Assembly: GCA_963662285.2 (NCBI GenBank)
Contig: CAXXMV010000002.1
Span: 192,001 to 256,000 of the forward strand
Direction: 5' to 3'
DNA from: a bacterium
GTDB taxonomy: Bacteria > Hinthialibacterota > Hinthialibacteria > Hinthialibacterales > Hinthialibacteraceae
Length of the DNA: 64,000 nt
Numbering within the stretch: the first letter of the stretch is position 1; each line of letters begins with the position of its first letter. The notes beneath the pieces are model-generated. The model was not told where the DNA came from. It saw only the letters and a program-made list of their open reading frames with translations, and ran no database searches. The translations under genes were made by a program, and so were the position numbers. This document shows positions 30,758 to 48,196 of the stretch, piece by piece.

Positions 30758-31777
30758 GTGGAGTCAGTATTAAAATCAATCGCAAAATCATCCAATTTAG
30801 AAAGAGTTTTATTTTCACCTGCGCTGAAGAAGTTATATTTCAATATGGCGATAGCTGCCGGGGGAGCAACCCAGTTTAAGCATGTTGACAGCGCCAGAAA
30901 TGGTCTTTCGTTTGCCGCGGACAAAGCGGATGACAAGAAGAGTACGCTTCTCTTCTGTTCAGCCCATGAATTGATGAGTGGATATGATTTGATGATTCAA
31001 ATCGCTGCTCAAATGCTGCCGGTAGTTGTGCTGGGCTTGCGCAGCGGCATTCCCGATACTGGTGAAGAAAACTGGTCGTATCTGCATTTACGTGAAACCG
31101 GGTGGATTCAGTTTCATACCCATACTCTGCAGGAAACCTATGATCACCTGGCAATGGCCTATCATGCGTTTGCTGTGCAAAAGATGCGTTTACCTATTCT
31201 GATTCTACATTCCAGCCTTAATCATGATTGTCTGGGTGAATTTACTCCACGGGATGACTTGGATATGGGGAATCCTTTGACGGGTCTTCAAAGCTCACGG
31301 GTGGGTAAGACAATGAGTTTTGAAGAAGCTTTTGCCAAGATGAAACATAAATCAGAGAAAGAAACCCTCCGTGGAAAATATATGCCATTGGTCGGCAATC
31401 TGCGTGAATTATATAAAGAACTAGATTATAAATTGCCGGAAGAAGGTTTCCCGTTTAAGGGCGCAATTACTGATAAAGAATCGGCAATAATTTCTATGAT
31501 TCCAACCGAGTCGCCTAGTGATGCGGATCGTATTTGCCGGATGCTCTGTTATCGTCCCTTTTCGGTGAGCAGTATGGCAAATTCGCTTAAAAACAAGAGA
31601 AAGATTGTGGTAGTTGAACCGCAACCTTCACCTGGTTCTGTTCCTGTTTTTCATGCGGAAATCATGGCGCAGTTAGGGAGTGAATATAACGGAGAAATTA
31701 TTTCTGTTGCATATCCCCCTCATGTTGCGAGCCTTACGACGGATCAATTGGATGAATTGGAGAGGAAGTTGGTTTGA
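30758..31777 (+). CDS. Degenerate 2-oxoacid:ferredoxin oxidoreductase alpha-subunit-like protein
   Basis: LPVVV..RETGWIQ...QETYD...AY...RLPIL and YRPF...KIVVVE resemble PorA; YPITP absent. Confidence 0.6.
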   Translation: MESVLKSIAKSSNLERVLFSPALKKLYFNMAIAAGGATQFKHVDSARNGLSFAADKADDKKSTLLFCSAHELMSGYDLMIQIAAQMLPVVVLGLRSGIPDTGEENWSYLHLRETGWIQFHTHTLQETYDHLAMAYHAFAVQKMRLPILILHSSLNHDCLGEFTPRDDLDMGNPLTGLQSSRVGKTMSFEEAFAKMKHKSEKETLRGKYMPLVGNLRELYKELDYKLPEEGFPFKGAITDKESAIISMIPTESPSDADRICRMLCYRPFSVSSMANSLKNKRKIVVVEPQPSPGSVPVFHAEIMAQLGSEYNGEIISVAYPPHVASLTTDQLDELERKLV

Positions 31778-31790
31778 ATTGGTGGATTTT

Positions 31791-31874
31791 GGTGGGTCGG
31801 TGAAGCTGACCCACCCTACGCCTGAAGTGATCGCATCAAGGGCTGACCGCATTGCGGTCTTGCCCTTGCCACCC
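31791..31874 (+). repeat. GTAG-type REP plus family A repeat
   Basis: GGTGGGTC-GGTGAAGCT-GACCCACCCTAC followed by ATCAAGGGCTGACCGC..CCACCC. Confidence 0.85.
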
Positions 31875-31922
31875 AGACTCTACAGATGAAATCGAGGATT
31901 TTTACTTCGACTATAAAAAACG

Positions 31923-32005
31923 TAGCCGGGGAGGGATTCGAACCCTCAAGCCGTTGTCGGCAAGGGATTTTAAGTCCCTCGTGTATACCGTTCCACCACC
32001 CGGCC
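31923..32005 (-). tRNA. tRNA-Leu(TAA)
   Basis: GGCCGGG acceptor, AGGGA-CTTAAAA-TCCCT, variable arm, GGTTCGAATCC. Confidence 0.95.
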
Positions 32006-32048
32006 TCGAAATACCATTATAAATCAAACTTTAAAAGGCTGAATGGTT

Positions 32049-33674
32049 TCAGTCAAAAATAGTGAAAAGAGACTCAATTTCTTCCGACGGTTTATAGTCA
32101 TGAACGCGACTTAAGACGGAAGATTTAGCAATATTATACAAAACCTTGGCCTGAACCAGATTGGAGCGGTTAAGAGCCAAGTCAATCTGCAAATCCTGCA
32201 AATCGCGGAAAGTGATGTTGCCAAAGTCGCGGAAGTCTATTAGACCGGTGTCAAGGTTGAACTGAGATTGGGTTACGTTGCGCTGGATAATTTCGATGCG
32301 TTGAAGTTGCAGCATCAACTCACGTAAATTCCGGTAGGTGGATTGAACAAGTTGCCGTTCGGTATCCCATAATCTGATTTTTGATTGTTCAAGATTTTCT
32401 TCAAGAGCACGCACTCGTGCGCGAGTCGCTCCACCGTCGCCAAAAGCCCAAGAGAAAATAAGCGCAGCGCCCAAATTCCGGTCGCTTTCGTCATTCTGAT
32501 TGGCAAAGGTTGATAAAACTAAATCCGGTTGTTGACCCAATCGAGCGACGCGGAGGGAATTTTCGGATCTTTTGATCGAAAGGCGCAAGTTTTTCAGGTC
32601 TAAATTGGTTGATGTGACAAGATTGATATATTCATTACTGGCAAGAGGGAGGGGTTTTACCTCTAACTTATCAGTTAAAATCAACTCAGTTTCAAGAGGA
32701 ATCCCCAGAAAGATATTTAAGCTTTCCATGGAATTTCTGAGGCTTCCTTCGAGTTCAATAAGCGAAGCTTGATTATTAAGCACGTCGGTTTGAGCTTGAC
32801 CGACGTCTTTTTGAGCTGCTTTTTCGAACTCATATTGCGTTTCAATAATGAAAGAAACTCGGAGAGATTGAAGCAGGCGTTCTTTTTGAATATCAAGTCT
32901 TTCCTGTAATTGCTGGATGTTCCAATAGCGGTTTATAACAGTCTCTTCAGCGCTTTTTTCCTGGGCGAATAAACTGTAATCGGATTGAATGGCGGCAATT
33001 TTGGAGTTCTCAATTTGGGTTTGAATTTCCTTGCGTGATCTGGAATTAATGGGGTAGCTATAATTTATGTTCAGCTTATATCTGTCTTCGAAATGGTTGC
33101 CTTCAGGATTGTTCGGGCCGCTGTCAAAGGCGCCCTCGGAATAGTGTTGAAAGTCCATCTCTGGTTGAATATCAAGCCTTGAGCCATTCTTGAATGTTTG
33201 AGTATAACTGGGACCAATATTAAACAGAGTATTGTTTTCGTATTCCTTCTTCGTGTCGGTTATTAATCCTTTTTCAGGATCAATACGGAAGGAGCCGGAG
33301 GCGCGTCGACTTATGGTTTCGTCCAATCGAGAATCAAGGCTGTATTTGGAGCGATAATTACTTTCGGTAAGATCAAGGTTGGCCAGGCTGCTTTGTAGAG
33401 CATGTTTATCAATTTGTATATCGGGATTTTGCTTCATTGCGATATCAATGGCGTCTTGAATCGTAATGGTCATTTGCTTGCCTTTGGTTCGGAACTCTTC
33501 ATTTTGGAGTATAGATTCGGCAACGGTGATATCTTCGATTCTCATTCTCGCGGCGGATGCTTTTAATGTAACCGGAGATGGCGCAACAATCTCCTGAGCA
33601 AAAATGGGAGCGGCAATAATAGTAAATAGAAAAATAGATAGACCTTTGGAATAACGTTGTACATTCACACTCAC
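32049..33674 (-). CDS. TolC-like outer membrane efflux protein
   Basis: Signal peptide; ITIQDAIDIAMKQNPDI; two helical/beta repeats; last gene of the RND operon. Confidence 0.85.
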   Translation of the reverse strand: MSVNVQRYSKGLSIFLFTIIAAPIFAQEIVAPSPVTLKASAARMRIEDITVAESILQNEEFRTKGKQMTITIQDAIDIAMKQNPDIQIDKHALQSSLANLDLTESNYRSKYSLDSRLDETISRRASGSFRIDPEKGLITDTKKEYENNTLFNIGPSYTQTFKNGSRLDIQPEMDFQHYSEGAFDSGPNNPEGNHFEDRYKLNINYSYPINSRSRKEIQTQIENSKIAAIQSDYSLFAQEKSAEETVINRYWNIQQLQERLDIQKERLLQSLRVSFIIETQYEFEKAAQKDVGQAQTDVLNNQASLIELEGSLRNSMESLNIFLGIPLETELILTDKLEVKPLPLASNEYINLVTSTNLDLKNLRLSIKRSENSLRVARLGQQPDLVLSTFANQNDESDRNLGAALIFSWAFGDGGATRARVRALEENLEQSKIRLWDTERQLVQSTYRNLRELMLQLQRIEIIQRNVTQSQFNLDTGLIDFRDFGNITFRDLQDLQIDLALNRSNLVQAKVLYNIAKSSVLSRVHDYKPSEEIESLFTIFD

Positions 33675-33712
33675 ATACCTTCTTTCTTTAATCTGGAGAG
33701 AGATTCTAAAAT

Positions 33713-36700
33713 TTATACGGAAATATATGGATCCCTTGTGTGGTAAAGATACGCATCTTCCAGCGTGGCTTCAATGTTAATAGCTTCTGGAGCGGGCTTA
33801 TCGTCAGAAACGATGCGTAAGCAAATGCCATCGGCGGTGTGAGTTTGGCCGCCGACAGAATAAAGTTTCCTGTAACGATGCCATGCAGACTCATCTTCCA
33901 CTATAAGTTCCCAAACCTTGTCATGAATAGATTCAACCAGTTCCTCCGGGTTCCCGGAGAAGAATAATTTACCTTCATCCATTAAAGCCAGACGCCGGCA
34001 ACTATGAGCTACATCTTCAACAATATGAGTTGATAAAATAACAACTCTATCCTGGCTCAATTGGACAAGTAAATTACGGAAGCGCAGACGCTCCATAGGA
34101 TCGAGGCCTACGGTTGGTTCATCAACAATTAATACCTTTGGGGGGAAGACGAATATTTGAGCTAAACCTATGCGGCGCATCATGCCGCCAGAGAAATTAT
34201 TAACGGAGACATCTTTTTGTTCAGATAAATTGACCATTTCGAGAGCGTTTAATATAGCGGCGCGACGTTCTTTTTTGATCTTCATTCCTTTGAGAAGGGC
34301 GAAATAGTCTAAATATTGATAGGCGGTCATGTGGCTATAGACGCCGAAGTTTTGCGGAAGATAGCCAATAAGTTTCTGCGCTTTACGTGATTCGGTTTTC
34401 ATGTCATACCCGCAAATGGATAAAAAGCCGCGAGTCGGTTGATCTATACCTGCGATCAAACGAAGAAGCGTAGTCTTCCCTGCTCCATTTGGACCTAATA
34501 GGCCGAATAAACCGCTTTCGATTTTTAAGGAAATCATATCCAATGCTTTATGCCGAGCGCGCGTAATCACTCTTCTGCTTGATCCGGCAAAAGGCGCCGG
34601 GACAATACCGGTAGCAGGAGAAAGGTTGGGGAGGAAACCGCCGTGTAGCAAAGTTCTGGAAAAACTGGATAATCTTTCAATCCGGCTAACCGGATAAATT
34701 CGGGTTAGGTGATCCAGTTCTACAATAAGAGGCTCTTCCCGTGGCGGCGTTAAGCGATAGGCAGTAAGCGATTGCCGGACGTTAAGGCGTTTTTTGCGGC
34801 TCCAAAAGATGAATATCCATCGCCAGCTGAAAACAAATTTAAAAGCTCTCTTAAACAATCTGCTGATATCTTCAACGATAAAATAGAAACCGGGTACGAT
34901 AACAAGGGTTAATACGGTTGAGCTGGCAAGACCGCCAATGACGCATCGAGCGAATGGAATCCAATCATTGTCTTGTCCTTTCCATTCTATGGCCATGGGT
35001 AGAAGGCCGAGGATGGTTGTTGCCACCGTCATTAAAATGGGGCGGAGACGGTAGTGTCCTGCAACCATAATAGCGCGTTCGCGGGGGTAATTTTTTTCCG
35101 TTCGTAGATAACCGGAGAAATGGACGAGTAATATAGCGCTATTGGGAAGGATGCCAACCAGGAAAACATAGCCCATCGCCGCCATTTCGTTGAAAGGGGT
35201 GTTTGTGAGAATAAACATCCAGCCTATGCCAAAGATAGCTAAAGGAATGGATAAAAAGATGACGAAAGGAAGGCTGAACGATTCGAAAAGAGAAGCGATG
35301 CACATGAAAATTAAGATGCCGGACATCCAGGCAATCATTTTAAATTGTTCAAAGACTTCATTCAGCCGTTGAGATCGTCCACCCAATGTCATGCGATAAC
35401 CTGCCGGGATAGGATATATATCTATTAATCCTATAACGGCTTCCTCAATTTCAGTGAAATTACTGTTGGGAGCGGTTTCAAATCTAATATGGCCAATGCG
35501 TTCGCGGTTTTCACGTCTCATAGACCCCATGCCGCGTTTAATTTCCATGACGCCTAATTCTTTTAAGGTTACAGTGGAACCCATTGAAGGAGAATAGATG
35601 GGGATATCGCTTAATTCCTCGAATTTCATGCCTCCCAAGTCTTCCATATCTTTTTCAAGGTCTTCAGTTTTTTCGATCAAATTAAAAATTATATCAATTT
35701 CCTTGTCGCCTTTTTTCATTTGGATGCTGGCGTAATCGCCCCGGCGCTGAGATAGCTGAATGGATTGAGCAATTAATCTAGGGGTGATTTGCAACAAAGC
35801 AGCTGCATCACGATCAAGCTTAAAATGCGCTTCCAGTGGTCCGGGTTCATTTTCGCTGAATACATCGCGTATACCGGGAATCTGGTTCATAACGGCGGCG
35901 AAATTTTCGGCGATTTCGTTAATTTGATTATATTCCGGGCCGCGAATTTCAATGGAGCCGCCTTGTCCGGAATCGACGACAGGCATTTGATTCTCACCTC
36001 TGGTGCGGGTAGGCGTGAAAGTGACTTCGGCAACAGAGAAATTTTCAAATAAAGGCCGAAGTTCTTCCTTTATGGTTTCGGATTCACGTTCTCGTTCATC
36101 AAGGTCTTTCAGGCGTATGCTAATGTGGGCGGAATCGTCTTGCACCCAGGAGTGAATGTTTTTGGCTTCGGGAACTTTATCTAGCAGAATATCTTCAACT
36201 TGATTTATGACTTCGAGCGTATGATCCTGCTTGGTTCCATTGGGGAGATAAACCCAGACATGGAACCAGCTGCGATCTTCAGGTTCCGCTAAGACATCCC
36301 GGCTTATGTTGCCTAATGTGTAGTAGTAGGTATAAAGGATAAACAGAACGATGGCAAGAAGAAATCTGACGCGGTGCCGAAGGCAGCTCTTAAGAATGGA
36401 ACCGTAATATTTACGAGTCCATTTCATGGTAGGTATTGGAATGCGTTGGAGAAATTTCTTCAAACGATCCGGTGAAGGGGGTGGATCAATTTTATGAGAG
36501 TTGAGTGGAGCATTTGCTTCAAGATTTGAAAGATTTTTATTAAGCGGAGCGGTCCGGGCGCGTTTTTTATCCAGGATCATCATCAAGCGCGAGGTTAGCA
36601 TGGGAACCAAAGTAAGAGCGACAAGCATTGATATGACCATGGGATAGATAATCGCAAGAGCCGCTTCTGTAAACATCAAACGGATAAAACCTTCTACAAA

Positions 36701-38050
36701 GACAATGGGGAGAAAAACAACGACATTGGTCAAGGTAAGAGCAAAAACAGCTTTGCCAACTTCGTTGCAACCTAATACAGCTGACTGGATGCCATTTTTC
36801 CCCCGTTCATGATGTCTAAATACGTTTTCAAGAACTACGATAGAGGTGTCTATCAAACAACCAACGCCAACCGCCAGTCCGACCAAGGTAAACATATTGA
36901 TCGACATGCCGGTGAAGTACATGCCGTTGAAGGTAGCTATAATACAAATAGGAATAACCAGACATACAATCAGCGACATGCGCACATTACGTATAAAGAG
37001 ATATAGCACCAACATGGAAAGCGCAATACCCATAAATGCAAGCCGTGCGAGAGTGGATAACATATCCAGGATGGGAGTGGCGGCATCTGAAGTTACCGCT
37101 AATTCGTAACCATCCGGGAGCGTTTGGTTAATCAAGTCGATAACCTTGAGAGTTTTACGTGATAAGTCGACCGGATTGATCAAGGCTTCTTTTTGCAGAT
37201 TTATGCCTAAGGCAGGTTTACCGTCGACTCGGCGAAGCCAGCGCCGGGCATGGAAAGTATCTTTAACTTCTCCCAGGTGGCGGACGGCGATGCCGCCGTT
37301 GTTTTTCACCACGACATCTTCAATTTCAGAGGTATCGCCGAATTGTCCATCCAGCCGGACGAATAGATCTTTGCCTTGTTCTTCAATATCGCCGAGGAAA
37401 ACCGGTTCATTGGCGAAAGTCTGGACTCTATTTCTAACCTGCCAAATGGGAGTCCCGAATTCCTGCAATCTGTCCTGGAGAACGGTGATATCTATCGAGC
37501 GTCTTTTACCTCCCCAAATTTCGGCAGTGGCGATGCCGTCTATATCTTCGAGTTGTTGGCGAATCTTGTCTGCGTTTATTGCTTCCAGGTAGGGATCAGA
37601 TCTGGGACCTTTCAATACCAGATCCATGAAATCACTATTAAAATGCGAAGTTTCGAAAGGAAAAGCATTCATATATATAGAACGTTTAGGGAATGTTTTT
37701 TGAAAACGATCCAAGCGTTCCTGCAAATCGACAATACGGTATTTGACGTTTGCGCCAAATTCGAATTCGATACGGAAGAATGCTCCATGTCGAAAGGTAT
37801 AAGTATAAATATTCTTAACATCTTGGAGTTGAGCGATTTCCCCTTCGACAGGGATGATGATTTTTCGTTCTAATTCTTCCGCACTCATATGTTCCATTAT
37901 GCGGCAAAACGCTCCGCCGCCAGGAACCGTGATATCCGGCAGGATCTGCATGGGAAGTTTGAAATAAGAGACGAAACCGAGAATAACGATCGCGGAAAAA
38001 AACATGATCGTGGTAATAGGTCGATGAACGGCGATACTGGATAGTTTCAT
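33713..38050 (-). CDS. RND (AcrB-like) permease fused to a C-terminal ABC ATPase domain
   Basis: IAVHRPIT, IDTSIVVLENVFRH, RLRPILMT, GGLASSTVLTL; then GPNGAGKTT, FSGGM, LIVDEP, STH; single frame; likely ATG at 38050. Confidence 0.9.
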   Translation of the reverse strand: MKLSSIAVHRPITTIMFFSAIVILGFVSYFKLPMQILPDITVPGGGAFCRIMEHMSAEELERKIIIPVEGEIAQLQDVKNIYTYTFRHGAFFRIEFEFGANVKYRIVDLQERLDRFQKTFPKRSIYMNAFPFETSHFNSDFMDLVLKGPRSDPYLEAINADKIRQQLEDIDGIATAEIWGGKRRSIDITVLQDRLQEFGTPIWQVRNRVQTFANEPVFLGDIEEQGKDLFVRLDGQFGDTSEIEDVVVKNNGGIAVRHLGEVKDTFHARRWLRRVDGKPALGINLQKEALINPVDLSRKTLKVIDLINQTLPDGYELAVTSDAATPILDMLSTLARLAFMGIALSMLVLYLFIRNVRMSLIVCLVIPICIIATFNGMYFTGMSINMFTLVGLAVGVGCLIDTSIVVLENVFRHHERGKNGIQSAVLGCNEVGKAVFALTLTNVVVFLPIVFVEGFIRLMFTEAALAIIYPMVISMLVALTLVPMLTSRLMMILDKKRARTAPLNKNLSNLEANAPLNSHKIDPPPSPDRLKKFLQRIPIPTMKWTRKYYGSILKSCLRHRVRFLLAIVLFILYTYYYTLGNISRDVLAEPEDRSWFHVWVYLPNGTKQDHTLEVINQVEDILLDKVPEAKNIHSWVQDDSAHISIRLKDLDERERESETIKEELRPLFENFSVAEVTFTPTRTRGENQMPVVDSGQGGSIEIRGPEYNQINEIAENFAAVMNQIPGIRDVFSENEPGPLEAHFKLDRDAAALLQITPRLIAQSIQLSQRRGDYASIQMKKGDKEIDIIFNLIEKTEDLEKDMEDLGGMKFEELSDIPIYSPSMGSTVTLKELGVMEIKRGMGSMRRENRERIGHIRFETAPNSNFTEIEEAVIGLIDIYPIPAGYRMTLGGRSQRLNEVFEQFKMIAWMSGILIFMCIASLFESFSLPFVIFLSIPLAIFGIGWMFILTNTPFNEMAAMGYVFLVGILPNSAILLVHFSGYLRTEKNYPRERAIMVAGHYRLRPILMTVATTILGLLPMAIEWKGQDNDWIPFARCVIGGLASSTVLTLVIVPGFYFIVEDISRLFKRAFKFVFSWRWIFIFWSRKKRLNVRQSLTAYRLTPPREEPLIVELDHLTRIYPVSRIERLSSFSRTLLHGGFLPNLSPATGIVPAPFAGSSRRVITRARHKALDMISLKIESGLFGLLGPNGAGKTTLLRLIAGIDQPTRGFLSICGYDMKTESRKAQKLIGYLPQNFGVYSHMTAYQYLDYFALLKGMKIKKERRAAILNALEMVNLSEQKDVSVNNFSGGMMRRIGLAQIFVFPPKVLIVDEPTVGLDPMERLRFRNLLVQLSQDRVVILSTHIVEDVAHSCRRLALMDEGKLFFSGNPEELVESIHDKVWELIVEDESAWHRYRKLYSVGGQTHTADGICLRIVSDDKPAPEAINIEATLEDAYLYHTRDPYISV

Positions 38051-38091
38051 TGTAATTAATCTGCGTCTGACGACAGCCTCGCTAAGTTCTA

Positions 38092-40833
38092 TTAATGTCT
38101 CCAAAAGTGTCGATGATTATTTCTTCTGGTATTTGCGCGAAGAGCGGTGGTATCATCGCCTTCGATCAAAATTCTTCTTTCGGAGTGCATTCTGGATTTT
38201 TTTATTTTATCAAGATGAGGAACCTGTAATATCCAATTTTCGGGATCGACAACAGCAAAGATGGGTCGGTGAGGAGATGTAAGGTCCAAGGTTTTTTCTT
38301 CTCCGGCGTCCAACCATATATTCCGGGTTATATAATCCATCTCTGTTTCTACATAAATAGGTACGGCCATACGGCCAGAGCCATGGTTTTTGACGCGGAC
38401 TAAAGTTTTGTAAGTGATAACGCCGGTTCTATCGTCGGTGATTAATTTCGCTTCGGTATAAGTTATTTCGTATTCCGGCAAGGCATTTCCCAAAACCCAT
38501 TCATCAATATACCACCCCAGGTCATCTCCATAGAACTCTTCTAACAAAGGACGCAGCTCGTCAACGGGTATCTCCTGGAAGCGATAGCGACGGAACATCT
38601 CGCGCAGAAACGCCCACCAAGGTTTATCTCCCATAATATGATGCAGCATACGGAATAAAGCTTCACCACGAATACGTTCCAGTTCGGGGTGAGTTCCCAT
38701 TTTATGCAGAGATAAAAGAGATTCGCTTTTGGCGACGGAGAGCGGGAGATTGCGATTACTTCCAACATCGTATTTTAATTCTCTGCGGCGTTGCCAGGAA
38801 TTTCGTTCAAGTAATTTTGAGGCGTAACTTGATAAATAATCATTGACCCAAAAAGCCATTTCTCCGGTTGGGTGTATGGAGTGGTCGAAATATGCGCTGA
38901 TAAGGTTGCGATAAAAATTGTCGTGAATTTCACGTAATGTTTGGGGGAGCAATTGATAAAAGGGTATCAAACGCGGGTTGTGGTCGAATCTTTCCATCAA
39001 CCACATTTCTTCACTTATATAGCACATTTGATTTTCCGACACCAGGAACATACCGGGCATTTGAGCGTAGTACGTCTGTGGATTGGCTAAAGGTTTCGCC
39101 CAGGGAATTCTTAATTTATTGCGTTGAGAATATTCGGTCCGCCAAGTGTAAGGCGTTTCGACCAAGGTTAACTGGTTGAAGGGGATGCGGCCCAATTTAT
39201 CATTAACAAATTCGTGTTGATCCTTAACTTCTTCCATATATATCTGAGCTTTATATTTGTGCATGGGGAAATGGTAGAAGCGAACGTTATATCCAAAAGA
39301 ATCACTTTCCAGTAATTGGTAGTTACCCCAATACATCTGTAATCGGTTAACGGGATATAAGGTTGACCAATGCTCGGTGCGGGCCTGGCCGTCTTCTTGG
39401 GAGTCGATCAAATCACCAGCGAAAGCGCCTTGCTGGCCTGGTTCCAGATGAAGCGTGATTTCTGACTCGAACAGGTCGTCATCAACCTTGACCCAGCGTT
39501 CATTTTCCGCTTGGAATTTGCGCCATGGAACAGGATACCATTTATTATGCATGGCGGTGTATTGTGGATGAAACTCCACCGGGGCGCCATGATAATTAAC
39601 CGATAATCTATATTCTTGATGCGGGATTAAAGATTCGCTGAAGTTAAATCGGACGCGGTTTTGTTGACGTGCGAAAGAACATTCTTGATTATCAAGTGCA
39701 GCTTCATCAACAGTGTATCTTGGATCAAGTTCAACGCCTAAATATCTGGTGGATTCTTTCGGGGTGAAGATTAAATCCGACTGGATATCCAAGCGGCTGT
39801 ATGTTTCGTTAGGTTTCAAGTCGAATTCATATTTTTGAAGGTCTACAGAAATAGCGGGAAACTTGACTCTTACCACGTTTTCTTCATGGCCATGTCCGTT
39901 TTTGATAAGAAAGTCTTTATAACTATATGTCGCCCAAATTACGCTGGTAGCGGATACAAGCAAAGTAAGCGTAAGAAATAAACGATATCCCCAACCCAAA
40001 TGGCGATCAAAGCGTAGATTGGTTATTGCTCGCATTATTAATGAGACGCTAAATAGACTGTTGCGTTTTCGATTTACAATCCACCTTTGAGGTTCCTGTC
40101 TTCTCAAATATAAGGGAGCAAAGGAAAGGATGGTCAAGCTTAATAAAGCATGCATAAATAATTGCACCCAATATTTTTCAAAAGAAAGACGTACTCCAAT
40201 AGTGGAAGATGAATTGGCGAGGTATCTAATGACGTCGGGGATATTGATTAAAATTCCTTCATGTACGCCCAGTTGATAAACGAATGCTCCAATAAGGCCG
40301 CCAATGATCAAGGCGGCGAAGTCATGTTTGAAAAAAGAGCGCATGGTTATCGCTAAAGCTGCTACTGGCACTATGACCGGAAGAACAAGAAGGATAAAAG
40401 CAACCCAGAAAGGCCGCCAGATAATCATACCATGCCCATATAGATATTGCCATAAGCCAAAGGAAAAAATACCTATTAAACTAAGAGGAACCATGACGAT
40501 AAGGACGCCGAGCAAGCGTCCACACATGAGAGAGGTGACGCCTACCGGCAGGGGGAACAAAATCTTATCCATACGGCTATGGCGTAGGCGACCACAGATA
40601 TCAAGCGCCAGAGCGCAGGCGCCAAGTCCGAGAATGGCTATCATCAACCAGAAACTCGGGTGTTGAAAGCTAAAAGCGGAATGAAGGAAAAATCCATCCT
40701 GCGCTCGTATAAGATAGTCTCGACGAGCGAACAGAGATATCCCTGCAACAAGTCCTAATAGCAGCCAGAAACGCCATCCACGACAGCTCATGCGAGCTTC
40801 GTTTAAGGCGATCAGTATGGTTTTGCGCAACAT
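38092..40833 (-). CDS. ABC-2-type permease fused to an M1 aminopeptidase-like extracytoplasmic domain lacking HExxH
   Basis: About 7 N-terminal TMs (IALNEARM, GRLLG); beta-sandwich; QLTLVETP; RGEALFRML..IMG; WYIDEWV...LP; VDPEN. Confidence 0.78.
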   Translation of the reverse strand: MLRKTILIALNEARMSCRGWRFWLLLGLVAGISLFARRDYLIRAQDGFFLHSAFSFQHPSFWLMIAILGLGACALALDICGRLRHSRMDKILFPLPVGVTSLMCGRLLGVLIVMVPLSLIGIFSFGLWQYLYGHGMIIWRPFWVAFILLVLPVIVPVAALAITMRSFFKHDFAALIIGGLIGAFVYQLGVHEGILINIPDVIRYLANSSSTIGVRLSFEKYWVQLFMHALLSLTILSFAPLYLRRQEPQRWIVNRKRNSLFSVSLIMRAITNLRFDRHLGWGYRLFLTLTLLVSATSVIWATYSYKDFLIKNGHGHEENVVRVKFPAISVDLQKYEFDLKPNETYSRLDIQSDLIFTPKESTRYLGVELDPRYTVDEAALDNQECSFARQQNRVRFNFSESLIPHQEYRLSVNYHGAPVEFHPQYTAMHNKWYPVPWRKFQAENERWVKVDDDLFESEITLHLEPGQQGAFAGDLIDSQEDGQARTEHWSTLYPVNRLQMYWGNYQLLESDSFGYNVRFYHFPMHKYKAQIYMEEVKDQHEFVNDKLGRIPFNQLTLVETPYTWRTEYSQRNKLRIPWAKPLANPQTYYAQMPGMFLVSENQMCYISEEMWLMERFDHNPRLIPFYQLLPQTLREIHDNFYRNLISAYFDHSIHPTGEMAFWVNDYLSSYASKLLERNSWQRRRELKYDVGSNRNLPLSVAKSESLLSLHKMGTHPELERIRGEALFRMLHHIMGDKPWWAFLREMFRRYRFQEIPVDELRPLLEEFYGDDLGWYIDEWVLGNALPEYEITYTEAKLITDDRTGVITYKTLVRVKNHGSGRMAVPIYVETEMDYITRNIWLDAGEEKTLDLTSPHRPIFAVVDPENWILQVPHLDKIKKSRMHSERRILIEGDDTTALRANTRRNNHRHFWRH

Positions 40834-40872
40834 CCTAATTTATTCCTTTCGCTTAACCTTTGGATGGTGGAA

Positions 40873-43800
40873 TCAGGCTTCCTGATGTTCCACTTCAACG
40901 CTTTGCGTCCCAAATAGCGAAAATAGTTTGTATATAATCTGTACTGCATCTTCAAATAGGCTGTAAACAACAGGGATGATAAGTAATGTCAAGATGGTGG
41001 AGGACAACAATCCACCGATAACCGCTATGGCCATCGGGGCCCGGATTTCGGCGCCTTCTCCGAAGCCCATAGCCAGAGGTAAAAGAGCCAGAACCGTAGT
41101 TAATGTTGTCATGAGGATGGGACGCAAACGACGGCATCCGGCCCGGACAATGGCGTCAAACATTTCCTCGCCTTCGTCCCGGCGGAGATAATTAATGTAG
41201 TCGACAAGCACAATTGCGTTGTTGACGACGATGCCGGCCAGCATAATGATGCCAATGTATCCCATCAAATTTAAGGTTTGCCCGGTTAGATAAAAAGCCC
41301 AGATTACGCCCACTGCGGCGAGAGGCAGTGAAAACATGATAACGAATGGATGGAGAAGAGATTCAAATAACGACGCCATAACCATATATACAAGAACCAG
41401 TGCGAGAACCAGTGCGAAGGCGAGTCTTTCAAAAGATTCACGTCTACGCTGCTCTTCTCCACCGAAATTTATATAATAATTGCTTGGTGGTTGAATGTTT
41501 CCAATACTCTCTTGAACCGCTCCAACCGCATCGCTCAGTTTTTGACCTTCAGCCACGTCCGCCAGGACTCGAGCGATACGTTCCTGCTCCCGGTGTAGTA
41601 TTTCCCGTGGTCCGGGTTGAATATCCACATCGACCAGGTTGCCCAGAGTAACGGCTTGGCCATTTCCTGTCGGAATTAGAGTGTTGAGCAGTTCGGGCAG
41701 GTTCATTTCTCCATCACCCAGTTGAACGCGGATGGCTTTAGTTTGATCAACGTCCTGCAGGTTGGTGGCTACCATCCCGCGTAATTGGTTGGAGACAAGT
41801 GTTATTAACTGTTGTTGATCAAGATCGTATTCATTCATAAGAATACGGTCCGGGATAAGGTGCACTTCTGGATTCCCATCGAGGATAGTGGTTCGAATAT
41901 TGGCCAATTCGGCCAAAGTATCCATTTGGGCTTTTACATCTTTAGTAAGGTTGGTTAAGGTTTCTAAACTACGTCCTTTAATTTCAACGACGATAGCGGC
42001 TTTTTCGCCTCCGATTAATGTAGCAAGGGAAGTTTGAGACATAAGAAAGGTCAGTTCCAACTTATGTATTTGCTTTGCTCGCGGCTCTAAATATTCTATT
42101 ACCTGTGGTACGGATAGCGAGGAGCCATTTTTGAGTGAAACGAGCATTTCCGCCGTATGCGAACCTTCAGGTTCTTCATCAATGGCGCCGGTGTCGTTGG
42201 GCTTGGGGCCAATGCGGGTGAAAATATGATCGATGTGCTGTCCCAAATCTTGTGAAAGCCAACCTTCGATGCTTTTCGCGGCTTGTTCTGTTGTTTCCAG
42301 CTTGGAACCGGGCGGCAAGCGTAATTTAACAATGAATTGTGATTCGGCGGCTTGTGGAATAAATTCCTGTTTGATTTCTTGAAGCAAGGGATAAACAGAC
42401 AAACAAGCCAGTGAGATAAATAAACAAGTAATAAAGCGGTGTCGCAACGAGAAGGCTAAAAAGGAAGCGTAGATTCCGCCTTGCGTGTCGGAACGCGCCT
42501 GGGGAACTTTTTTCAAGTAACGGGAGCATAATGCAGGGATCATAATTAATGCAACAACTAATGATGTAAGCAAAGAGAAGACAACGGTTAAGGCTTGTTC
42601 CTTAAATAATTGCGCTGTAACGCCGCCCATATAGGCAATAGGGACGAAAACAACTACGGTAGTAAGGGTTGCGGCGGCGATGGCCGAAGCAACTTCTCCG
42701 GCGCCAATCATGGCGGCATCAGAAGGAGAGTCGCCTAGTTGCCGACGGCGAAAGATGTTTTCGATAACAACAATGGCATTATCCACTAACATGCCTGCCC
42801 CTAAGGCCAGGCCGCCCAAAGTCATGATATTGAGTGAAAGATCCATAAAATACATCAGGTTGAAAGTTGCTAAAATGGATACTGGAATAGCTAAAGCAAC
42901 AATGATGGTTGAGCGGATATTTCTTAAAAAAATCAAAAGAATTAATGATGCTAATCCAATGCCCTGAAAAGCAGTGTTCTTGACCTCTGATATTGAGCGG
43001 TTGATGAACAGCGATTGGTCATAAGCGACTTCCAGAGTTAAATCTTTGGGAATTATGCTGGTTTCCTGTCTTAGTCCAAATCCCCCTGCCATGCCTCTAT
43101 TACTGACAGGCTGGAGTTTATCTTGATCTTTGCCAAGAAAGTCACGGACAGATTTAACGACGTCAACCGTGTTTCCGCCAGCTTCTTTGTATAAAGCGAT
43201 GCCAACGCCGGGATTATTATCCATCCGTACCATATCTACCGGTTCTTCAAAACTCCACTTTGCTTCGCCCACATCGGTAAGATAAATGGGAACGCCGCCG
43301 GAATAACCAACGACGCATTGGGCGACCTGTTCGATATCTTCGATTTCGCCTATAGCCCTGATCATATAGCGCTGATTACCCTCTTCAACATATCCGCCGG
43401 AAGCGCTGACATTGGCTTGATCCAAGGCCTGTGAAATAGCTGGTATGGAAAGACCATAAAAATGGAGCAATTCGGGATCGAGCATACAATGGATTTCGGG
43501 GATTAATCCTCCGGTAACTTCGGCGCGGGCTACTCCCTTAATTCGTTCCAGGGCCGGGCCGATGGTACGTTCGCAGAGATAACGCAATTCTTCTAAATTA
43601 CGTTTTCCATATAATCCCAATGTCATAATGGGTAATGCGTTTGGATCGTAGCGATAAGCCGTTATTTCTTCGATTTCATCAATACGGCTGCCCTGGGTAT
43701 TCTTCTTAACTTCGAGCATGGCGAAGTTCATATCGGTTCCCCAGTTAAAATCGACGATTATGGCGCCTGAATCGGCGCGGGAAACGCTGGATACTTTATC

Positions 43801-44133
43801 GACGCCCGAGATAGTCTTTAATCGTCCTTCTAGAGGCTCAATGACGATTCTTTCTATTTCCTGGGGCGCCAAACCGGGAGCGTCGGCCATTACGGTTATT
43901 CTGGGGGCCCTTAGATCGGGGAATAAGTTGGTCGGTAATTTGCTGAGTGATATCCAACCCAGCATAATAATGCCTACAAAAAACATGCTGACCGTTACAG
44001 GGTATTTTACTGCGAATGCCGCGGCGCCCATTCCTCTACGAAGAAGGCCGCCATCTTCAATAGAACCATCTTGCGGTTGGCCAGCAACTTCTGAAGTTGC
44101 TTGATTTAAATTTTCTTTTTCACGATTATCCAT
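40873..44133 (-). CDS. RND (AcrB/SwrC-like) permease
   Basis: GMLVDNAIVVIENIFRR, GIVVNNAIVLVD, RLRPILMT, PMAIAVIGGL. Confidence 0.93.
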   Translation of the reverse strand: MDNREKENLNQATSEVAGQPQDGSIEDGGLLRRGMGAAAFAVKYPVTVSMFFVGIIMLGWISLSKLPTNLFPDLRAPRITVMADAPGLAPQEIERIVIEPLEGRLKTISGVDKVSSVSRADSGAIIVDFNWGTDMNFAMLEVKKNTQGSRIDEIEEITAYRYDPNALPIMTLGLYGKRNLEELRYLCERTIGPALERIKGVARAEVTGGLIPEIHCMLDPELLHFYGLSIPAISQALDQANVSASGGYVEEGNQRYMIRAIGEIEDIEQVAQCVVGYSGGVPIYLTDVGEAKWSFEEPVDMVRMDNNPGVGIALYKEAGGNTVDVVKSVRDFLGKDQDKLQPVSNRGMAGGFGLRQETSIIPKDLTLEVAYDQSLFINRSISEVKNTAFQGIGLASLILLIFLRNIRSTIIVALAIPVSILATFNLMYFMDLSLNIMTLGGLALGAGMLVDNAIVVIENIFRRRQLGDSPSDAAMIGAGEVASAIAAATLTTVVVFVPIAYMGGVTAQLFKEQALTVVFSLLTSLVVALIMIPALCSRYLKKVPQARSDTQGGIYASFLAFSLRHRFITCLFISLACLSVYPLLQEIKQEFIPQAAESQFIVKLRLPPGSKLETTEQAAKSIEGWLSQDLGQHIDHIFTRIGPKPNDTGAIDEEPEGSHTAEMLVSLKNGSSLSVPQVIEYLEPRAKQIHKLELTFLMSQTSLATLIGGEKAAIVVEIKGRSLETLTNLTKDVKAQMDTLAELANIRTTILDGNPEVHLIPDRILMNEYDLDQQQLITLVSNQLRGMVATNLQDVDQTKAIRVQLGDGEMNLPELLNTLIPTGNGQAVTLGNLVDVDIQPGPREILHREQERIARVLADVAEGQKLSDAVGAVQESIGNIQPPSNYYINFGGEEQRRRESFERLAFALVLALVLVYMVMASLFESLLHPFVIMFSLPLAAVGVIWAFYLTGQTLNLMGYIGIIMLAGIVVNNAIVLVDYINYLRRDEGEEMFDAIVRAGCRRLRPILMTTLTTVLALLPLAMGFGEGAEIRAPMAIAVIGGLLSSTILTLLIIPVVYSLFEDAVQIIYKLFSLFGTQSVEVEHQEA

Positions 44134-44196
44134 CAGAGATCCTTCTGTTTAGACTATACAAAATTGAACAAATCCATATCAGGAACACCATTAAAC

Positions 44197-45042
44197 CTAT
44201 GTAAACCACTTGGACGTTTGCCGTAATTGGCGGAAAAGATAATCTAATACAAATCCAGCCAATACCAGAACAAATATTCTGTTAAAAATTATGGAAAATA
44301 AGGGTGAATTTCTTGAAATTACGCCCGGGGGAAGAATCGGATTGGCGAACAGTTCGATAGGGCCGATAGAGCGCAACCAGAAAAAATGGACGCCCAAAAT
44401 AAGCAGTGATACTAATCCGGTAGCAATTCCATGTTTGCAAAAGGTTGATACTAATATTGTTATGGAACCAACAGCAAAAGATGTTGTGGTTAACAGTAGA
44501 ATTATGGTCCATCGCCCTTCGGTATATGCGCTGAAGTAGCTGAAAAACAATATTACCAGAACGCTAAAAATTAGTTGCCAAAGGGTTACTGTAACAAGTT
44601 GAAGAACAATCAATGCGCCGCGACGAATTGGTTGGCTCCAAAGAATTTCCAGTGTTCCATCATCCCTTTCACGGGGTAATATGTTCATGCATAGTAAAAC
44701 CATAACTAGCGAGAAATAGATGTAGCAATAATATAAGAGCTCATGCATATTCTGGCCATGGTTTTGGGTTACTACCCAGCCAAAAAAAGCTAATGCTCCA
44801 ATTAGCGCAAGAAAGGATTCGATGCGTAGAAAAAGCCGGGAAGTAAAAAGAAATAATTTGAACCAATAAGAAATCTCTCTGAAACTCCATTTTACGGCGT
44901 GGAAAAAAGTTGCTATGATCCAATATATATTCTGGCCTAGTACGATAAAGAGTGAAAGAAAACCTTTCCACGCACGTTTAATAAGACCTGGCGGCATGCT
45001 GGCGGAAGCAGGAAGTTTTTCTAAATTATCCAATGAATCCAT
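44197..45042 (-). CDS. ABC-2-type permease
   Basis: About 6 TMs, ERDDGTLEILWSQPIRR motif. Confidence 0.8.
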   Translation of the reverse strand: MDSLDNLEKLPASASMPPGLIKRAWKGFLSLFIVLGQNIYWIIATFFHAVKWSFREISYWFKLFLFTSRLFLRIESFLALIGALAFFGWVVTQNHGQNMHELLYYCYIYFSLVMVLLCMNILPRERDDGTLEILWSQPIRRGALIVLQLVTVTLWQLIFSVLVILFFSYFSAYTEGRWTIILLLTTTSFAVGSITILVSTFCKHGIATGLVSLLILGVHFFWLRSIGPIELFANPILPPGVISRNSPLFSIIFNRIFVLVLAGFVLDYLFRQLRQTSKWFT

Positions 45043-45053
45043 GGTTCATTTCC

Positions 45054-45932
45054 CTATGCAGCTTGTGAATCGGTGTTTAGAAATCGGATATATGCATCTT
45101 CCAGATTAGGCGCCACATTGTGCGCGTTCTCTTTAGGAGGCGTTGGCGAAATAATGCGGAAGCAAATGCCTTTTATGTCTTCACGGATAGAGACCAGATT
45201 CTTACTGCCGGTGAAGGTCTCTACGTCATCTGCATCGCCATAAAATTCCCAGGTTTGTTCATTTGCGGCTCTCACGAATTCAGAAGGAGAGCCATGAAAG
45301 TGGATGCGACCATCCAGCAGCAACGCTAATTTACTGCATGTTTCTTCGATGTCTTTAACAATGTGGGTAGAAAGAATGACAATTCTATTCTGTCCCAATT
45401 CAAACAGTAAATTTCTGAAATGGATGCGTTCTTCAGGGTCAAGTCCTGCGGTTGGCTCATCGACCACGATTAGTTTAGGATCGTTTATCAGAGCTTGAGC
45501 GATGCCGATGCGTCGCAGCATCCCGCCGGAGAAAGTTTTCAGGCGTTTATGAGCTACTTCGGTAAGACGTACAGCAGCCAACAATTCATCGATATTGCGA
45601 CGCAGATTGCGACCATACATGCCGCGTAGACCGCCGAGATAATTGAGGAATTCTCTAGCAGTCAATTCTGGAAAGTAGCCGAAAAATTGTGGTAAATATC
45701 CTAGCAAGGGACGAATTTTACTTGCTTGTTTACGGCTATCGAAACCATCGATTAGAATTGTTCCAGAAGTCGGTTCTAACAGCTGGGTTAAAATTTCCAT
45801 CAAAGTTGTTTTTCCGGCGCCGTTTGGACCCAGCAATCCGAAAAGACCATCTTTTATATGGAGGTCGATTTCCTTCAGGGCTTGATGTCCGTCGGGATAT
45901 ATTTTAGAAAGATCTTTACAAATCACTTCCAT
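45054..45932 (-). CDS. ABC transporter ATP-binding protein
   Basis: GPNGAGKTT, GYLPQ, FSGGM, IVVDEPTAGLDP, STH, NLEDAY. Confidence 0.95.
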   Translation of the reverse strand: MEVICKDLSKIYPDGHQALKEIDLHIKDGLFGLLGPNGAGKTTLMEILTQLLEPTSGTILIDGFDSRKQASKIRPLLGYLPQFFGYFPELTAREFLNYLGGLRGMYGRNLRRNIDELLAAVRLTEVAHKRLKTFSGGMLRRIGIAQALINDPKLIVVDEPTAGLDPEERIHFRNLLFELGQNRIVILSTHIVKDIEETCSKLALLLDGRIHFHGSPSEFVRAANEQTWEFYGDADDVETFTGSKNLVSIREDIKGICFRIISPTPPKENAHNVAPNLEDAYIRFLNTDSQAA

Positions 45933-45986
45933 AATGGGTGATCTCCGAAATAGGCGCAGAGAAAGCGGTATTACGAAATTTTAAAA

Positions 45987-46006
45987 GCCGCGTTTGAAGA
46001 CGCGGC
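45987..46006 (-). terminator. Intra-operon hairpin after the adaptor gene
   Basis: GCCGCGT-CTTCAA-ACGCGGC followed by TTTT on the minus strand. Confidence 0.6.
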
Positions 46007-46033
46007 GAATATTTATCATAAGCAGCATGGCTA

Positions 46034-47566
46034 TTATTTTGCGTCGGATTCAGTGGTTGTTTTTGTGGAATCATCTCCACTAAGGAATTCCTCATCGCGA
46101 ATAGTGATATTGATGTCAACATCATCGGTTAGCGTTTCATATCCTAATACTACAAGAAGATCGCCTTCTTGCAGACCGTCGATAATTTCAATTTTTTCAC
46201 GATTCTCTATACCGACGGTAACCACTCTCTCCTCGGCAATAAGATCAGGTTCTTCTTTTTTAACTGGTTCTTCCTCTTCATCAAACAGTTCTTCGTCAGT
46301 TGCATCAGAGATATCATCAGTAGCGGCTGCAATTTTAGGGGAAATATCTTCGGCGGCGGATGCTGTTTTTTCAAAACCTTTATTCGAAGCTAAAGGAATT
46401 TTTTCGTTTGAAGGTTGATCATCGTTTGTTTGGGGCAATTGCAATTCTTCGGTTGCGCTTTTAACTTCTTCTTCGATGGGTTTTTCCTTTGCAACAAAGA
46501 CAACCTGGCGGTTGTTGCGTAGAAGCACCAATTCCCGTGGGATGCTTATGGAATCTAATCTCTCTTCGGTAATTATCCTTGCTTTGGCGAACATACCCGG
46601 CCGTAATTCGTGGGCGGGATTATCTACCAGAACATTGACGGTATAGGTTCGGGTGGTTGAGTTGAGCGCGGTGGAGATATCAGCGATTTTGCCGATATAA
46701 ACCATAGCGGATTTGGTATAGACTTCGAGTTCTACCTGTTGTCCAATTTCCACTTCGACAAGATCTTTGGCTGGCACATCAAGCGCCACATAGACCTTGT
46801 CGATATTTGCCAATCGGCAGAGAACGGTGCCTTGAGCAATGGTTTGACCATTAAATAATGTCAAATCAGTCTCTTCGGTGGATCGTTGGGCTATGGAGAC
46901 ATTTTGCCGGGCTGGCAGAAGAACGCCGCTATATGGGATTACAATGGGAACTTTTTCTTGATCCTGCTTGATTCTTTGTAATTCCATTTGTCTGGAACGA
47001 ATCGTTTTCAAGGTAGACTCAAAAGCATTTTTTCTTTGTATTCTGGCAAGAATCGCTTGATCATACTCATATTTGGAGATAGCGCCGCGTTCGAACATCG
47101 CTTGCTTAAATGCTTCATCTTTATAAGCTTGCGCCAAGTTAGCGCTGGCTGGATTGATCTCTGCTTTGGCTGATTCAAGTTGCAATTCAGATATTTCAAT
47201 ATTCCGGTTTAATTCACGCGCATCCATTCTGGCCAGGATTTCGTCTTTTTTAACTTCGTCGCCTTCCAGCCATTTCTGCGTATAGTAAATACGGCCAGAC
47301 ATTTCAGGTTTGATTTCCAGTTCTTTAATAGGGACGACAGTTCCTCTGGCCTGGAGATAGGCAAACATTCTGCCGCGGGTAACGCGTTCTACGGTTACAG
47401 GTATTTTGAATTTGGGTTTTTGAGGTTTACCAAAATTTCCACCGGGTTTTCCTTGTGAAAGTTTACTGCCCTGCCCCGCTTTGTTGGATTTTCCCCCGAA
47501 ATATCCGCAACCAGTGATTAAAGCGATTCCAAGCGTAAGAATTAAAAAACTGCGCACCATTTTCAT
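46034..47566 (-). CDS. RND periplasmic adaptor (membrane fusion) lipoprotein
   Basis: LITGC lipobox; IKPEMSGRI..EGDEVKK lipoyl half; coiled hairpin; LRPGMFAKA; IEIIDGLQEGD. Confidence 0.9.
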   Translation of the reverse strand: MKMVRSFLILTLGIALITGCGYFGGKSNKAGQGSKLSQGKPGGNFGKPQKPKFKIPVTVERVTRGRMFAYLQARGTVVPIKELEIKPEMSGRIYYTQKWLEGDEVKKDEILARMDARELNRNIEISELQLESAKAEINPASANLAQAYKDEAFKQAMFERGAISKYEYDQAILARIQRKNAFESTLKTIRSRQMELQRIKQDQEKVPIVIPYSGVLLPARQNVSIAQRSTEETDLTLFNGQTIAQGTVLCRLANIDKVYVALDVPAKDLVEVEIGQQVELEVYTKSAMVYIGKIADISTALNSTTRTYTVNVLVDNPAHELRPGMFAKARIITEERLDSISIPRELVLLRNNRQVVFVAKEKPIEEEVKSATEELQLPQTNDDQPSNEKIPLASNKGFEKTASAAEDISPKIAAATDDISDATDEELFDEEEEPVKKEEPDLIAEERVVTVGIENREKIEIIDGLQEGDLLVVLGYETLTDDVDINITIRDEEFLSGDDSTKTTTESDAK

Positions 47567-48196
47567 AATGATCGATTCCTGTATTGATTTATTGATTAAT
47601 TAACTTCTTGTAATTATATTGCTTATGATAGTTCAAAGATAATGAAGATTCAGTGTTCCCTACTTAACTTTATTTTTGAATAAACGTTTGACATCTCTTT
47701 TTACTACGCAAATTTACCTATAAAGGTTTAAAAAAAGTTTTACGATAAACGAAATAGAATATTTCAAATAGTACAAAAACGACAAATTCATCGTTCAAAT
47801 TTGACCAATAAATACAAAATCACAATATTATTTATTTATCATATAATTAATAGCCAGTGGCTATCAGTCCGCTTTATCCGCTGGCGGCTTTGTGAGCGGA
47901 ACAAATAGGAGGAATTAATTTAATAAGTATAGGTCTCGTATTTAAGAAGATATGTTCCTTTTAAAATAATTTTATCATAGGAGAATTATCAAGATGAATT
48001 TATTAAAATATGATGGTAATTCTCATATTTATCTGCATAAATCTTTAGACTTGATAACGGCCAAAATATTCTTTTCATCTATAAATCTATTCAATTATTT
48101 TTTTAATCTATTCTATTGTAGCGAGGCGCTGAATATGAGAAACTGGTAATAGGGTTAATTATTCTTGATTATAAAATAAGTCTATTTGTAAAATGA

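Follow-up and report, generated by a model that had tools for sequence, protein, structure and literature searches.

An RND permease fused to an ABC ATPase in a conserved seven-gene cassette of Hinthialibacterota: relay residues, genomic partners and probable role

The locus and the fusion gene

In a stretch of 64,000 nucleotides from a bacterium of the Hinthialibacterota (assembly GCA_963662285.2, contig CAXXMV010000002.1, positions 192,001 to 256,000 of the forward strand; hereafter the window), one gene encodes a complete permease of the resistance-nodulation-division (RND) superfamily extended at its C-terminus by the nucleotide-binding domain (NBD) of an ATP-binding cassette (ABC) ATPase. 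This gene, RND2::NBD-b, is the sixth of seven co-directional genes occupying positions 32049-47566 of the minus strand. A first-pass annotation, made from the sequence, had proposed that the proton relay of this permease is eroded and that the protein may have exchanged proton coupling for ATP coupling. We discuss here the reality and spread of the fusion, the relay residues of fused and unfused proteins, and the genes that accompany them. The fusion is genuine and appears to be anciently fixed, as one of seven conserved parts of what would be a composite envelope exporter, and its relay is better described as a variant of its subfamily than as a sign of ATP coupling.

The longest reading frame of the gene opens with a TTG codon, from which all residue numbers given here are counted; numbering from the ATG is obtained by subtracting 18. 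Translation probably starts at the ATG at 38050 (codon 19), giving a protein of 1445 amino acids (aa), since residue 1 of the homologues aligns to query residue 19. The TTG start would overlap the end of the preceding gene, bTMD, by 13 bases; the ATG leaves a gap of 41 bases to that gene and lacks an obvious Shine-Dalgarno sequence. The features of the gene are as follows, TM4, TM10 and TM11 being transmembrane (TM) segments of the RND part.

33713..38104, minus strand: RND2::NBD-b fusion gene (protein P0001), longest frame from TTG 38104, 1463 codons, stop at 33713-33715
34874..38041, minus strand: complete RND permease (residues 22-1077), Pfam PF00873 ACR_tran, E 3.7e-165, profile positions 2-1020 of 1021
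36833..36859, minus strand: TM4 motif CLIDTSIVV (residues 416-424); D419 is the equivalent of AcrB D407 and T420 that of D408
35129..35155, minus strand: TM10 motif GILPNSAIL (residues 984-992); N988 is the equivalent of AcrB K940
35027..35050, minus strand: TM11 motif RLRPILMT (residues 1019-1026); R1021 is the equivalent of R971 and T1026 that of T978
34745..34873, minus strand: short basic linker (residues 1078-1120) holding the aromatic hydrophobic stretch FKFVFSWRWIFIFW (34802-34843)
33716..34744, minus strand: NBD-b, ABC nucleotide-binding domain (residues 1121-1463), Pfam PF00005 ABC_tran at residues 1189-1331, E 7.8e-27
34694-34732, minus strand: first beta strand of NBD-b, followed by a variable insertion of ~49 aa (about 34547-34693)
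34469-34495, minus strand: Walker A of NBD-b, GPNGAGKTT (residues 1204-1212)
34352-34363, minus strand: Q-loop of NBD-b
34181-34195, minus strand: signature of NBD-b, FSGGM (residues 1304-1308)
34118-34132, minus strand: Walker B of NBD-b, LIVDE (residues 1325-1329)
34097-34108, minus strand: D-loop of NBD-b
34025-34033, minus strand: H-switch of NBD-b, STH (residues 1358-1360)

Both Pfam domains fall in a single open reading frame (ORF), in agreement with the initial description of a full RND joined to an NBD without interruption. Every motif quoted in that description (TM4, TM10, Walker A, signature, Walker B and H-switch) occurs once and at its expected place, and the motif set of the NBD is intact, the Q-loop and the D-loop included. 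A hydropathy scan of the RND part recovers 12 transmembrane segments arranged 1+5 and 1+5, and the protein belongs to the RND superfamily on this basis.

Reality and spread of the fusion

Forty related genomes were searched for the fusion. Within the family, 17 of the 19 other genomes have a full-length uninterrupted match. Of the 6 genomes that represent two more families of the order, four have a full-length match, one has it divided between two contigs, and in one it runs off the end of a contig. None of the matches listed is full length in the 9 class-level or the 6 more distant genomes. A search of protein collections with the linker-plus-NBD region, restricted to long proteins, returned at least 120 matches, all of those listed carrying both PF00873 and PF00005, and at least 113 fused database proteins from several phyla share the architecture. 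The source names of the fused proteins listed include Hinthialibacter, Omnitrophota, Aminicenantes, KSB1, Zixiibacteriota, Calditrichaeota, Chlorobi and Latescibacterota, and the best named relative among the matches listed, from Candidatus Hinthialibacter, is 73% identical over the linker-plus-NBD region.

Such a frame could in principle result from an assembly error, or from an overlooked stop or frameshift between two neighbouring genes. One class-level relative (G028, locus L013) might be taken in this sense: its RND2 ends at a stop codon, and the sequence of the following NBD is scattered over three or more reading frames. An artefact is contradicted by the recurrence of this open frame in over 20 independently assembled genomes and 113 long database proteins, and by the conservation of linker residues at the protein level. 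The read-level check over the junction that the first-pass annotation had proposed is likewise favourable, with one Logan contig in each of two runs spanning 33600-38200 with 0 differences and 0 gaps; both runs represent one sample, possibly the window's own source, and add little independent support. We consider an artefact to be extremely improbable. No RNA run was present among the listed sequencing runs carrying the locus.

The broken copy just mentioned (G028:C12, about 15500-16700) lies in the same operon, its successive NBD pieces carrying Walker A, then the signature, Walker B and H-switch, and then the C-terminal part. The fusion may be decaying or split in this genome, or indel errors in a GC-rich assembly may have produced the breaks. 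Between this NBD and the gene of the outer-membrane factor (about 16680-16800) lies a run of a short tandem repeat whose translation, according to strand and frame, is KIKIKI... or LNLNLN...

Relay residues in fused and unfused proteins

In passages of the review PMC8277102 that deal with AcrB, the proton relay is formed by D407, D408 and K940 with R971 and T978, substitution of these residues abolishes efflux, and D408 is the residue that titrates. In the HMMER alignment of the fused protein to the solved structure of MdtB (9lyq_B), 'idts' falls on 'vdda' and 'lpns' on 'kkna'. The replacements relative to AcrB are D408 to T and K940 to N, and the equivalents of D407 and R971 are kept, as had been noticed at first; that of T978 is kept too. 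The motifs reported for the unfused partner encoded in the same cassette, RND1, were also read correctly (LVDNAIVV and GIVVNNAIV). RND1 lacks the same two charged residues as the fused protein (D408 to N, K940 to N), and an eroded relay specific to the fused protomer is not supported.

The residues at the five relay positions were tabulated for 113 fused proteins of at least 1050 aa, drawn from the at least 120 matches and aligned.

AcrB D407 position, 113 fused proteins: D 113
AcrB D408 position, 113 fused proteins: N 83, S 23, T 4, A 2, K 1
AcrB 939-941 (TM10 triplet), 113 fused proteins: VNN 75, PNS 37, PNP 1
AcrB K940 position, 113 fused proteins: N 113
AcrB R971 position, 113 fused proteins: R 111, K 2
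AcrB T978 position, 113 fused proteins: T 112, M 1

The combination of D-N at positions 407-408 with the VNN triplet accounts for 69 of the 113 fused proteins and D-S with VNN for 6 more, so that 75 of 113 display the ordinary VNN form. For comparison with unfused relatives, the RND part was scored against 1.84 billion representatives and 171 proteins of at least 950 aa were tabulated (148 from the list and 23 extra fused), shorter fragments being dropped. Of the 125 rows lacking a complete NBD tail, D-N with VNN accounts for 78, which agrees with the earlier remark that VDNAIVV/VNNAIV is a common variant; a further 8 D-S, 4 D-F, 2 D-T, 2 D-C, 2 D-G and 1 D-Y all occur with VNN. In the 21 rows with D-D, position 940 is occupied by K, S, T, R, H or A, and not once by N. 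Positions 408 and 940 covary in the subfamily (RND relatives P0125-P0269): in the 171 proteins, N408 is found with N940 with two exceptions (D, and the DND triplet). Relay loss does not follow fusion, the same D-N/VNN combination being found in 69 of 113 fused proteins and in 78 of 125 rows lacking the NBD tail. Because this combination prevails among those 125 rows and the unfused partner likewise lacks both residues, the alignments indicate that the joint absence of D408 and K940 characterizes the RND subfamily as a whole.

The residues read in the window's fusion protein are distributed differently. Of the two readings whose presence in unfused proton-driven RNDs the first-pass annotation held to speak against its own proposal, D-T does occur in unfused proteins (P0200 and P0205), and the P-N-S triplet of TM10 is absent from all 125 rows and was seen in the fused clade alone. 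P-N-S marks one clade of 13 fused rows (FastTree, support 100), whose basal members still have D-N; D-S, D-T or D-A is limited to a 7-row subclade holding the window. Among the 36 type A fused proteins of the window's clade (type A designates a gene order described below), D419, P987, N988, R1021 and T1026 do not vary and S989 hardly does, and the equivalent of position 408 may be N, S, T, A or K. As the former five residues are invariant in 36 of 36 proteins, what these sequences record in this clade is constraint, not erosion, with position 420 alone relaxed. The D-T and P-N-S readings would then represent a lineage-specific retuning of a subfamily already devoid of D408 and K940, not decay.

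These data bear directly on the proposal that the fused protomer gave up ion coupling and that its cycle is driven by ATP hydrolysis in the attached NBD. It draws on the loss of two of the three residues of the AcrB triad, which in AcrB are needed and one of which titrates (same passages of PMC8277102), on the restriction of P-N-S to a fused clade, on the variability of position 408 within the window's clade, and on a TM12-NBD linker that is both short and conserved. It is opposed by the absence of the same two residues from the unfused partner and from most rows without an NBD tail, by the ordinary VNN form of two fused proteins out of three, by D-N in the basal members of the P-N-S clade, and by the invariance or near invariance of D407, N940, R971 and T978 in the fused proteins. 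Two ABC-2 permeases and a second NBD also accompany the fusion in all cases, and the trimeric state of an RND pump would fit a dimeric NBD only if there were other partners. An exchange of proton for ATP coupling is not supported, and we regard it as improbable.

The ATPase domain and the linker

Walker A, the Q-loop, the signature, Walker B with its catalytic glutamate, the D-loop and the H-switch of NBD-b are each at least 90% conserved over 138 sequences, and NBD-b belongs to the ABC ATPases by these motifs. Its nearest solved counterparts are the NBDs of ABCA1, ABCA3, ABCA4 and ABCA7 (E ~1e-53 to 1e-56). The nearest NCBIfam models are DrrA (173.6 bits vs a curated cut-off of 312.45), GldA (167.1 vs 402.6) and NodI (144.1 vs 521), all under their cut-offs. 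The NBDs of ABCA, DrrA, GldA and NodI work with ABC-2-type membrane domains. By sequence similarity, NBD-b is an ATPase resembling the ABC-2 class represented by DrrA, GldA and NodI and not a named member of it. Its C-terminal domain is common to NBD-a, the free ABC ATPase of the cassette.

In a subclade formed by P0043, P0044, P0045 and P0053, the signature is degenerate (SEGM or SAGM instead of SGGM), and Walker A, Walker B and the H-switch are kept; P0044, P0045 and P0053 also have DLD instead of GLD in the D-loop. Such motif asymmetry is seen in heterodimeric ABC ATPases, and the degenerate signature suggests that these proteins would contribute to a heterodimer with one non-canonical ATP site.

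Past TM12, the polypeptide comprises in order a basic stretch with an aromatic helix (SWRW..FW), the sequence TAYR, the first beta strand of the NBD (..DHLTRIY), the variable insertion and the Walker A region. The linker is strongly conserved in 16 order-level orthologues, including SWRW..FW and TAYR. In the fused proteins of the second gene order, type B (P0080), TM12 is followed by two additional membrane helices, and some four others lie within the N-terminal insertion of the NBD. The tail, from TM12 through the linker to the NBD, was modelled by AlphaFold on a 16-row alignment with a mean pLDDT of 65.9 and a pTM of 0.50; values were 36-65 in the linker and 30-45 in the insertion, and the NBD core alone was confident. 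A complex prediction combining residues 1-310 of bTMD, sTMD and residues 1105-1463 containing NBD-b scored 0.35, vs 0.58 for a control in which an unrelated protein replaced bTMD.

A conserved seven-part cassette

The six other genes of the cassette are listed below; the parts were labelled by iterative searches, and in three loci the type B labels were borne out by Pfam.

46034..47566, minus strand: periplasmic adaptor (MFP, HlyD/CusB type, 510 aa)
45054..45932, minus strand: NBD-a, free ABC ATPase (292 aa), 45% identical to NBD-b
44197..45042, minus strand: sTMD, small ABC-2 permease (281 aa), Pfam ABC2_membrane_2, _3 and _4
40873..44133, minus strand: RND1 (P0003, 1086 aa), unfused partner RND with DN / VNN motifs
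38092..40833, minus strand: bTMD (P0002, 913 aa), 7 hydrophobic segments of ABC-2 permease type, then a ~600-aa domain of M1 fold
32049..33674, minus strand: outer-membrane factor (OMF, TolC-like, 541 aa)

Two gene orders were encountered. Type A, MFP-NBDa-sTMD-RND1-bTMD-RND2::NBDb-OMF, is the arrangement of the taxonomic order to which the window belongs and is found in six of six loci (the window and L014-L018). Type B, NBDa-bTMD-OMF-MFP-RND1-RND2::NBDb-sTMD, occurs in Zixiibacteriota, Bacteroidales and Krumholzibacteria; where the upstream DNA is long enough, all 16 loci have the five genes that precede RND2::NBDb, and of the 22 loci with downstream DNA, 21 have sTMD immediately after it. 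All loci with enough flank encode the same seven parts, including two ABC-2 permeases and a second NBD, and each cassette examined has one MFP gene beside those of RND1 and RND2. sTMD and bTMD are paralogous ABC-2 permeases that match each other in iterative searches. The sole type B locus without an sTMD ORF of at least 150 aa is L022, from a Zixiibacteriota metagenome-assembled genome, downstream of position 15289. A pattern search derived from the type B fusion alignment picked generic NBD patterns, and 77 of its 80 loci are plain ABC ATPases; only L048-L050 are full length. A scan of positions 31000-49000 for sigma-70 promoters and terminators returned 37 and 19 sites, vs 37.5 and 19.3 in shuffled sequence.

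The second part of bTMD was modelled by AlphaFold with a pLDDT of 82.8. Foldseek assigned it the fold of M1 aminopeptidases, the best matches being puromycin-sensitive aminopeptidase, ERAP1, IRAP and PepN (E ~1e-20 over ~590 columns; 1.2e-20 for PDB entry 8sw0). The zinc ligands of these enzymes are lacking, neither HExxH nor the distal glutamate ligand being found in bTMD: 19-23 residues ahead of its WxN[D/x]Y segment, where we presume from the M1 consensus that the zinc motif would lie, the protein reads LISAY, and no histidine is conserved there in 36 sequences. On the evidence of the model, this domain is an M1 fold without a zinc site. It should be periplasmic, because the loop before the seventh hydrophobic segment is very basic (positive-inside rule). 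bTMD has no Pfam match at E 0.01 or better, and a word search retrieved 36 homologues, all hypothetical or unnamed. One source names the homologue P0286 as the permease of a 'multi-copper enzyme maturation' ABC system.

In a FastTree phylogeny of the RND part, all 46 fused rows and 4 short rows lie outside a 121-row clade that is entirely unfused (support 100), a topology that is compatible with a single origin of the fusion, the root not being inferred. The four short rows (P0131, P0137, P0138 and P0206) were considered as true unfused forms and rejected: they have linker-like tails beyond TM12, and P0131 is marked 'partial' by NCBI. In the tree of NBDs, the NBD-a proteins from both gene orders form one group (18 rows, SH-aLRT 96) separate from all NBD-b, from which it follows that the pair of one free and one fused NBD would predate the split of the gene orders and that both copies were kept. 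No full-coverage free orthologue of NBD-b on a long contig was present among the 120 shorter proteins listed.

A possible mechanism

Since two ABC-2 permeases and a second NBD are present at every locus with enough flank, these are the natural candidates for partners of the NBD-b ATPase. We favour, as the somewhat more probable account, that NBD-b together with NBD-a powers the co-encoded ABC-2 permeases, and that the fusion tethers this ABC module to an RND pump that is still ion-driven. NBD-b would dimerize with the free NBD-a, and the pair would drive sTMD and bTMD, either moving a substrate from the cytoplasm or the inner leaflet or mechanically operating the presumed periplasmic M1-like domain. 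RND1 and RND2 would form an ion-driven trimer, possibly an MdtB2C-like heterotrimer (perhaps 2:1) with one fused protomer, in which RND2 may couple to the ion gradient through D419, N988, R1021 and T1026. A 2:1 trimer would place one NBD-b in each pump and resolve the mismatch between RND trimer and NBD dimer. Substrate handled by the ABC module or its M1-like domain would be passed to the RND porter and leave through the duct formed by the adaptor and the outer-membrane factor, the covalent link fixing the stoichiometry and the proximity of the ABC module to the RND pump.

Several points weigh against this account. The contact of NBD-b with NBD-a or with the ABC-2 permeases is itself presumed, and the pairing of permeases and NBDs is not consistent between the two gene orders. 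The RND phylogeny was produced by FastTree only and its root was not inferred. The invariant P-N-S triplet is particular to the window's fused clade, and the short conserved linker would also fit a fixed mechanical connection of the NBD to the RND membrane domain.

Two further proposals make use of the linker. In the first, NBD-b would belong to the ABC-2 module and also gate or synchronize the ion-driven RND2 through the linker, ATP controlling the time at which substrate is accepted. Conservation of the linker in the order-level orthologues, persistence of the fusion (no split form occurred among the 120 shorter matches listed), the invariant clade-specific P987 and S989 adjoining the relay position, and the extra membrane helices of type B proteins between TM12 and the NBD and inside the N-terminal part of the NBD are all consistent with it. 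On the other side, nothing speaks directly for allostery, tethering by itself accounts for retention of the fusion, and the tail model is of low confidence exactly in the linker region; this dual role seems unlikely to us, though less so than direct driving by ATP. In the second, hydrolysis by NBD-b would be transmitted through the SWRW..FW and TAYR linker to TM12 and TM10, making one protomer ATP-driven or ATP-gated and its partners ion-driven, with P-N-S as the signature of coupling. This arrangement, which would amount to a pump with two energy sources in one rotor, we hold to be improbable.

Comparison with known systems

The RND part shares with AcrB, an HAE-1 proton/drug antiporter, the PF00873 fold, the 12 transmembrane segments and the equivalents of D407, R971 and T978, and differs from it by T at D408, N at K940 and the C-terminal ABC ATPase. 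Its score against the NCBIfam AcrB equivalog (155.5 bits vs a cut-off of 2150) and its relay residues set it apart from the AcrB-type HAE-1 antiporters. The best-matching model is NF033617, RND_permease_2, to which P0001 and P0003 score 463.8 and 652 bits, both under the cut-off of 1250.

Among the closest known systems is MdtABC-TolC of E. coli and Salmonella, in which two RND paralogues are likewise co-encoded with a single adaptor; of the solved structures, that of MdtB matches the RND part best (9lyq_B, E 2.1e-65). HAE-1 pumps are described in the relevant passage of PMC8277102 as rarely heterotrimers, 'such as MdtBC'. In contrast to the cassette discussed here, MdtB and MdtC lack an ATPase domain and ABC genes are absent from their operon; furthermore, MdtB keeps D-D and K ('vvddaivv', 'kkna'), whereas both RND paralogues of the cassette have N at the K940 position and lack D408.

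MacAB-TolC similarly includes an ATPase in an export system with an adaptor and an outer-membrane factor. The membrane part of MacB is FtsX-like and has its own periplasmic domain, whereas here the NBD is carried by the RND permease and the ABC-2 permeases are separate; no FtsX or MacB_PCD Pfam match was found in P0001, P0002 or sTMD, and the cassette is not of the MacB type. Similar in their ABC components are the ABC-2 (type V) systems NosF/NosY, GldA/GldF (GldAFG) and DrrA/DrrB, NBD-b matching the DrrA, GldA and NodI models and sTMD the ABC2_membrane families. We know of no NosFY-, GldA- or DrrAB-like system with its NBD fused to an RND permease or included in an operon of RND, adaptor and outer-membrane factor genes. 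Finally, bTMD resembles known fusions of an ABC-2 permease to an M1 aminopeptidase, having an ABC-2-type membrane part followed by an M1-fold domain, and differs from them by the absence of the HExxH...E site.

Significance

RND and ABC pumps are taught as alternative energizers of tripartite efflux. The cassette unites the two in a single conserved operon and joins them covalently, an arrangement that occurs in many uncultured phyla and in some Bacteroidota. Should the ABC module feed or prime the RND pump, the cassette would be a natural, hard-wired case of two-step export, which to our knowledge has otherwise been inferred only from genetic cooperation between separate pumps. No description of an RND-NBD fusion was found among the papers listed in the literature searched, which excluded supplements and most subscription journals; the main text of a paper on Hinthialibacterota (PMC9324843) contains no occurrence of RND, efflux or AcrB.

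The main result is a negative one, the 'eroded relay' being no evidence of ATP coupling. The analysis contributes the relay table of fused and unfused proteins, the pairing of N408 with N940 vs D408 with K940, the conserved clade-specific P-N-S triplet, the tree of NBD-a and NBD-b, and the dead M1-domain fold. A large RND subfamily that works without the D408-K940 pair of AcrB also makes the ion coupling of single-aspartate RND pumps directly testable. A cultured Bacteroidota isolate, Carboxylicivirga sp. M1479 (L034, NZ_VKDE01000017.1), carries a complete type B cassette with a fusion protein of 1577 aa.

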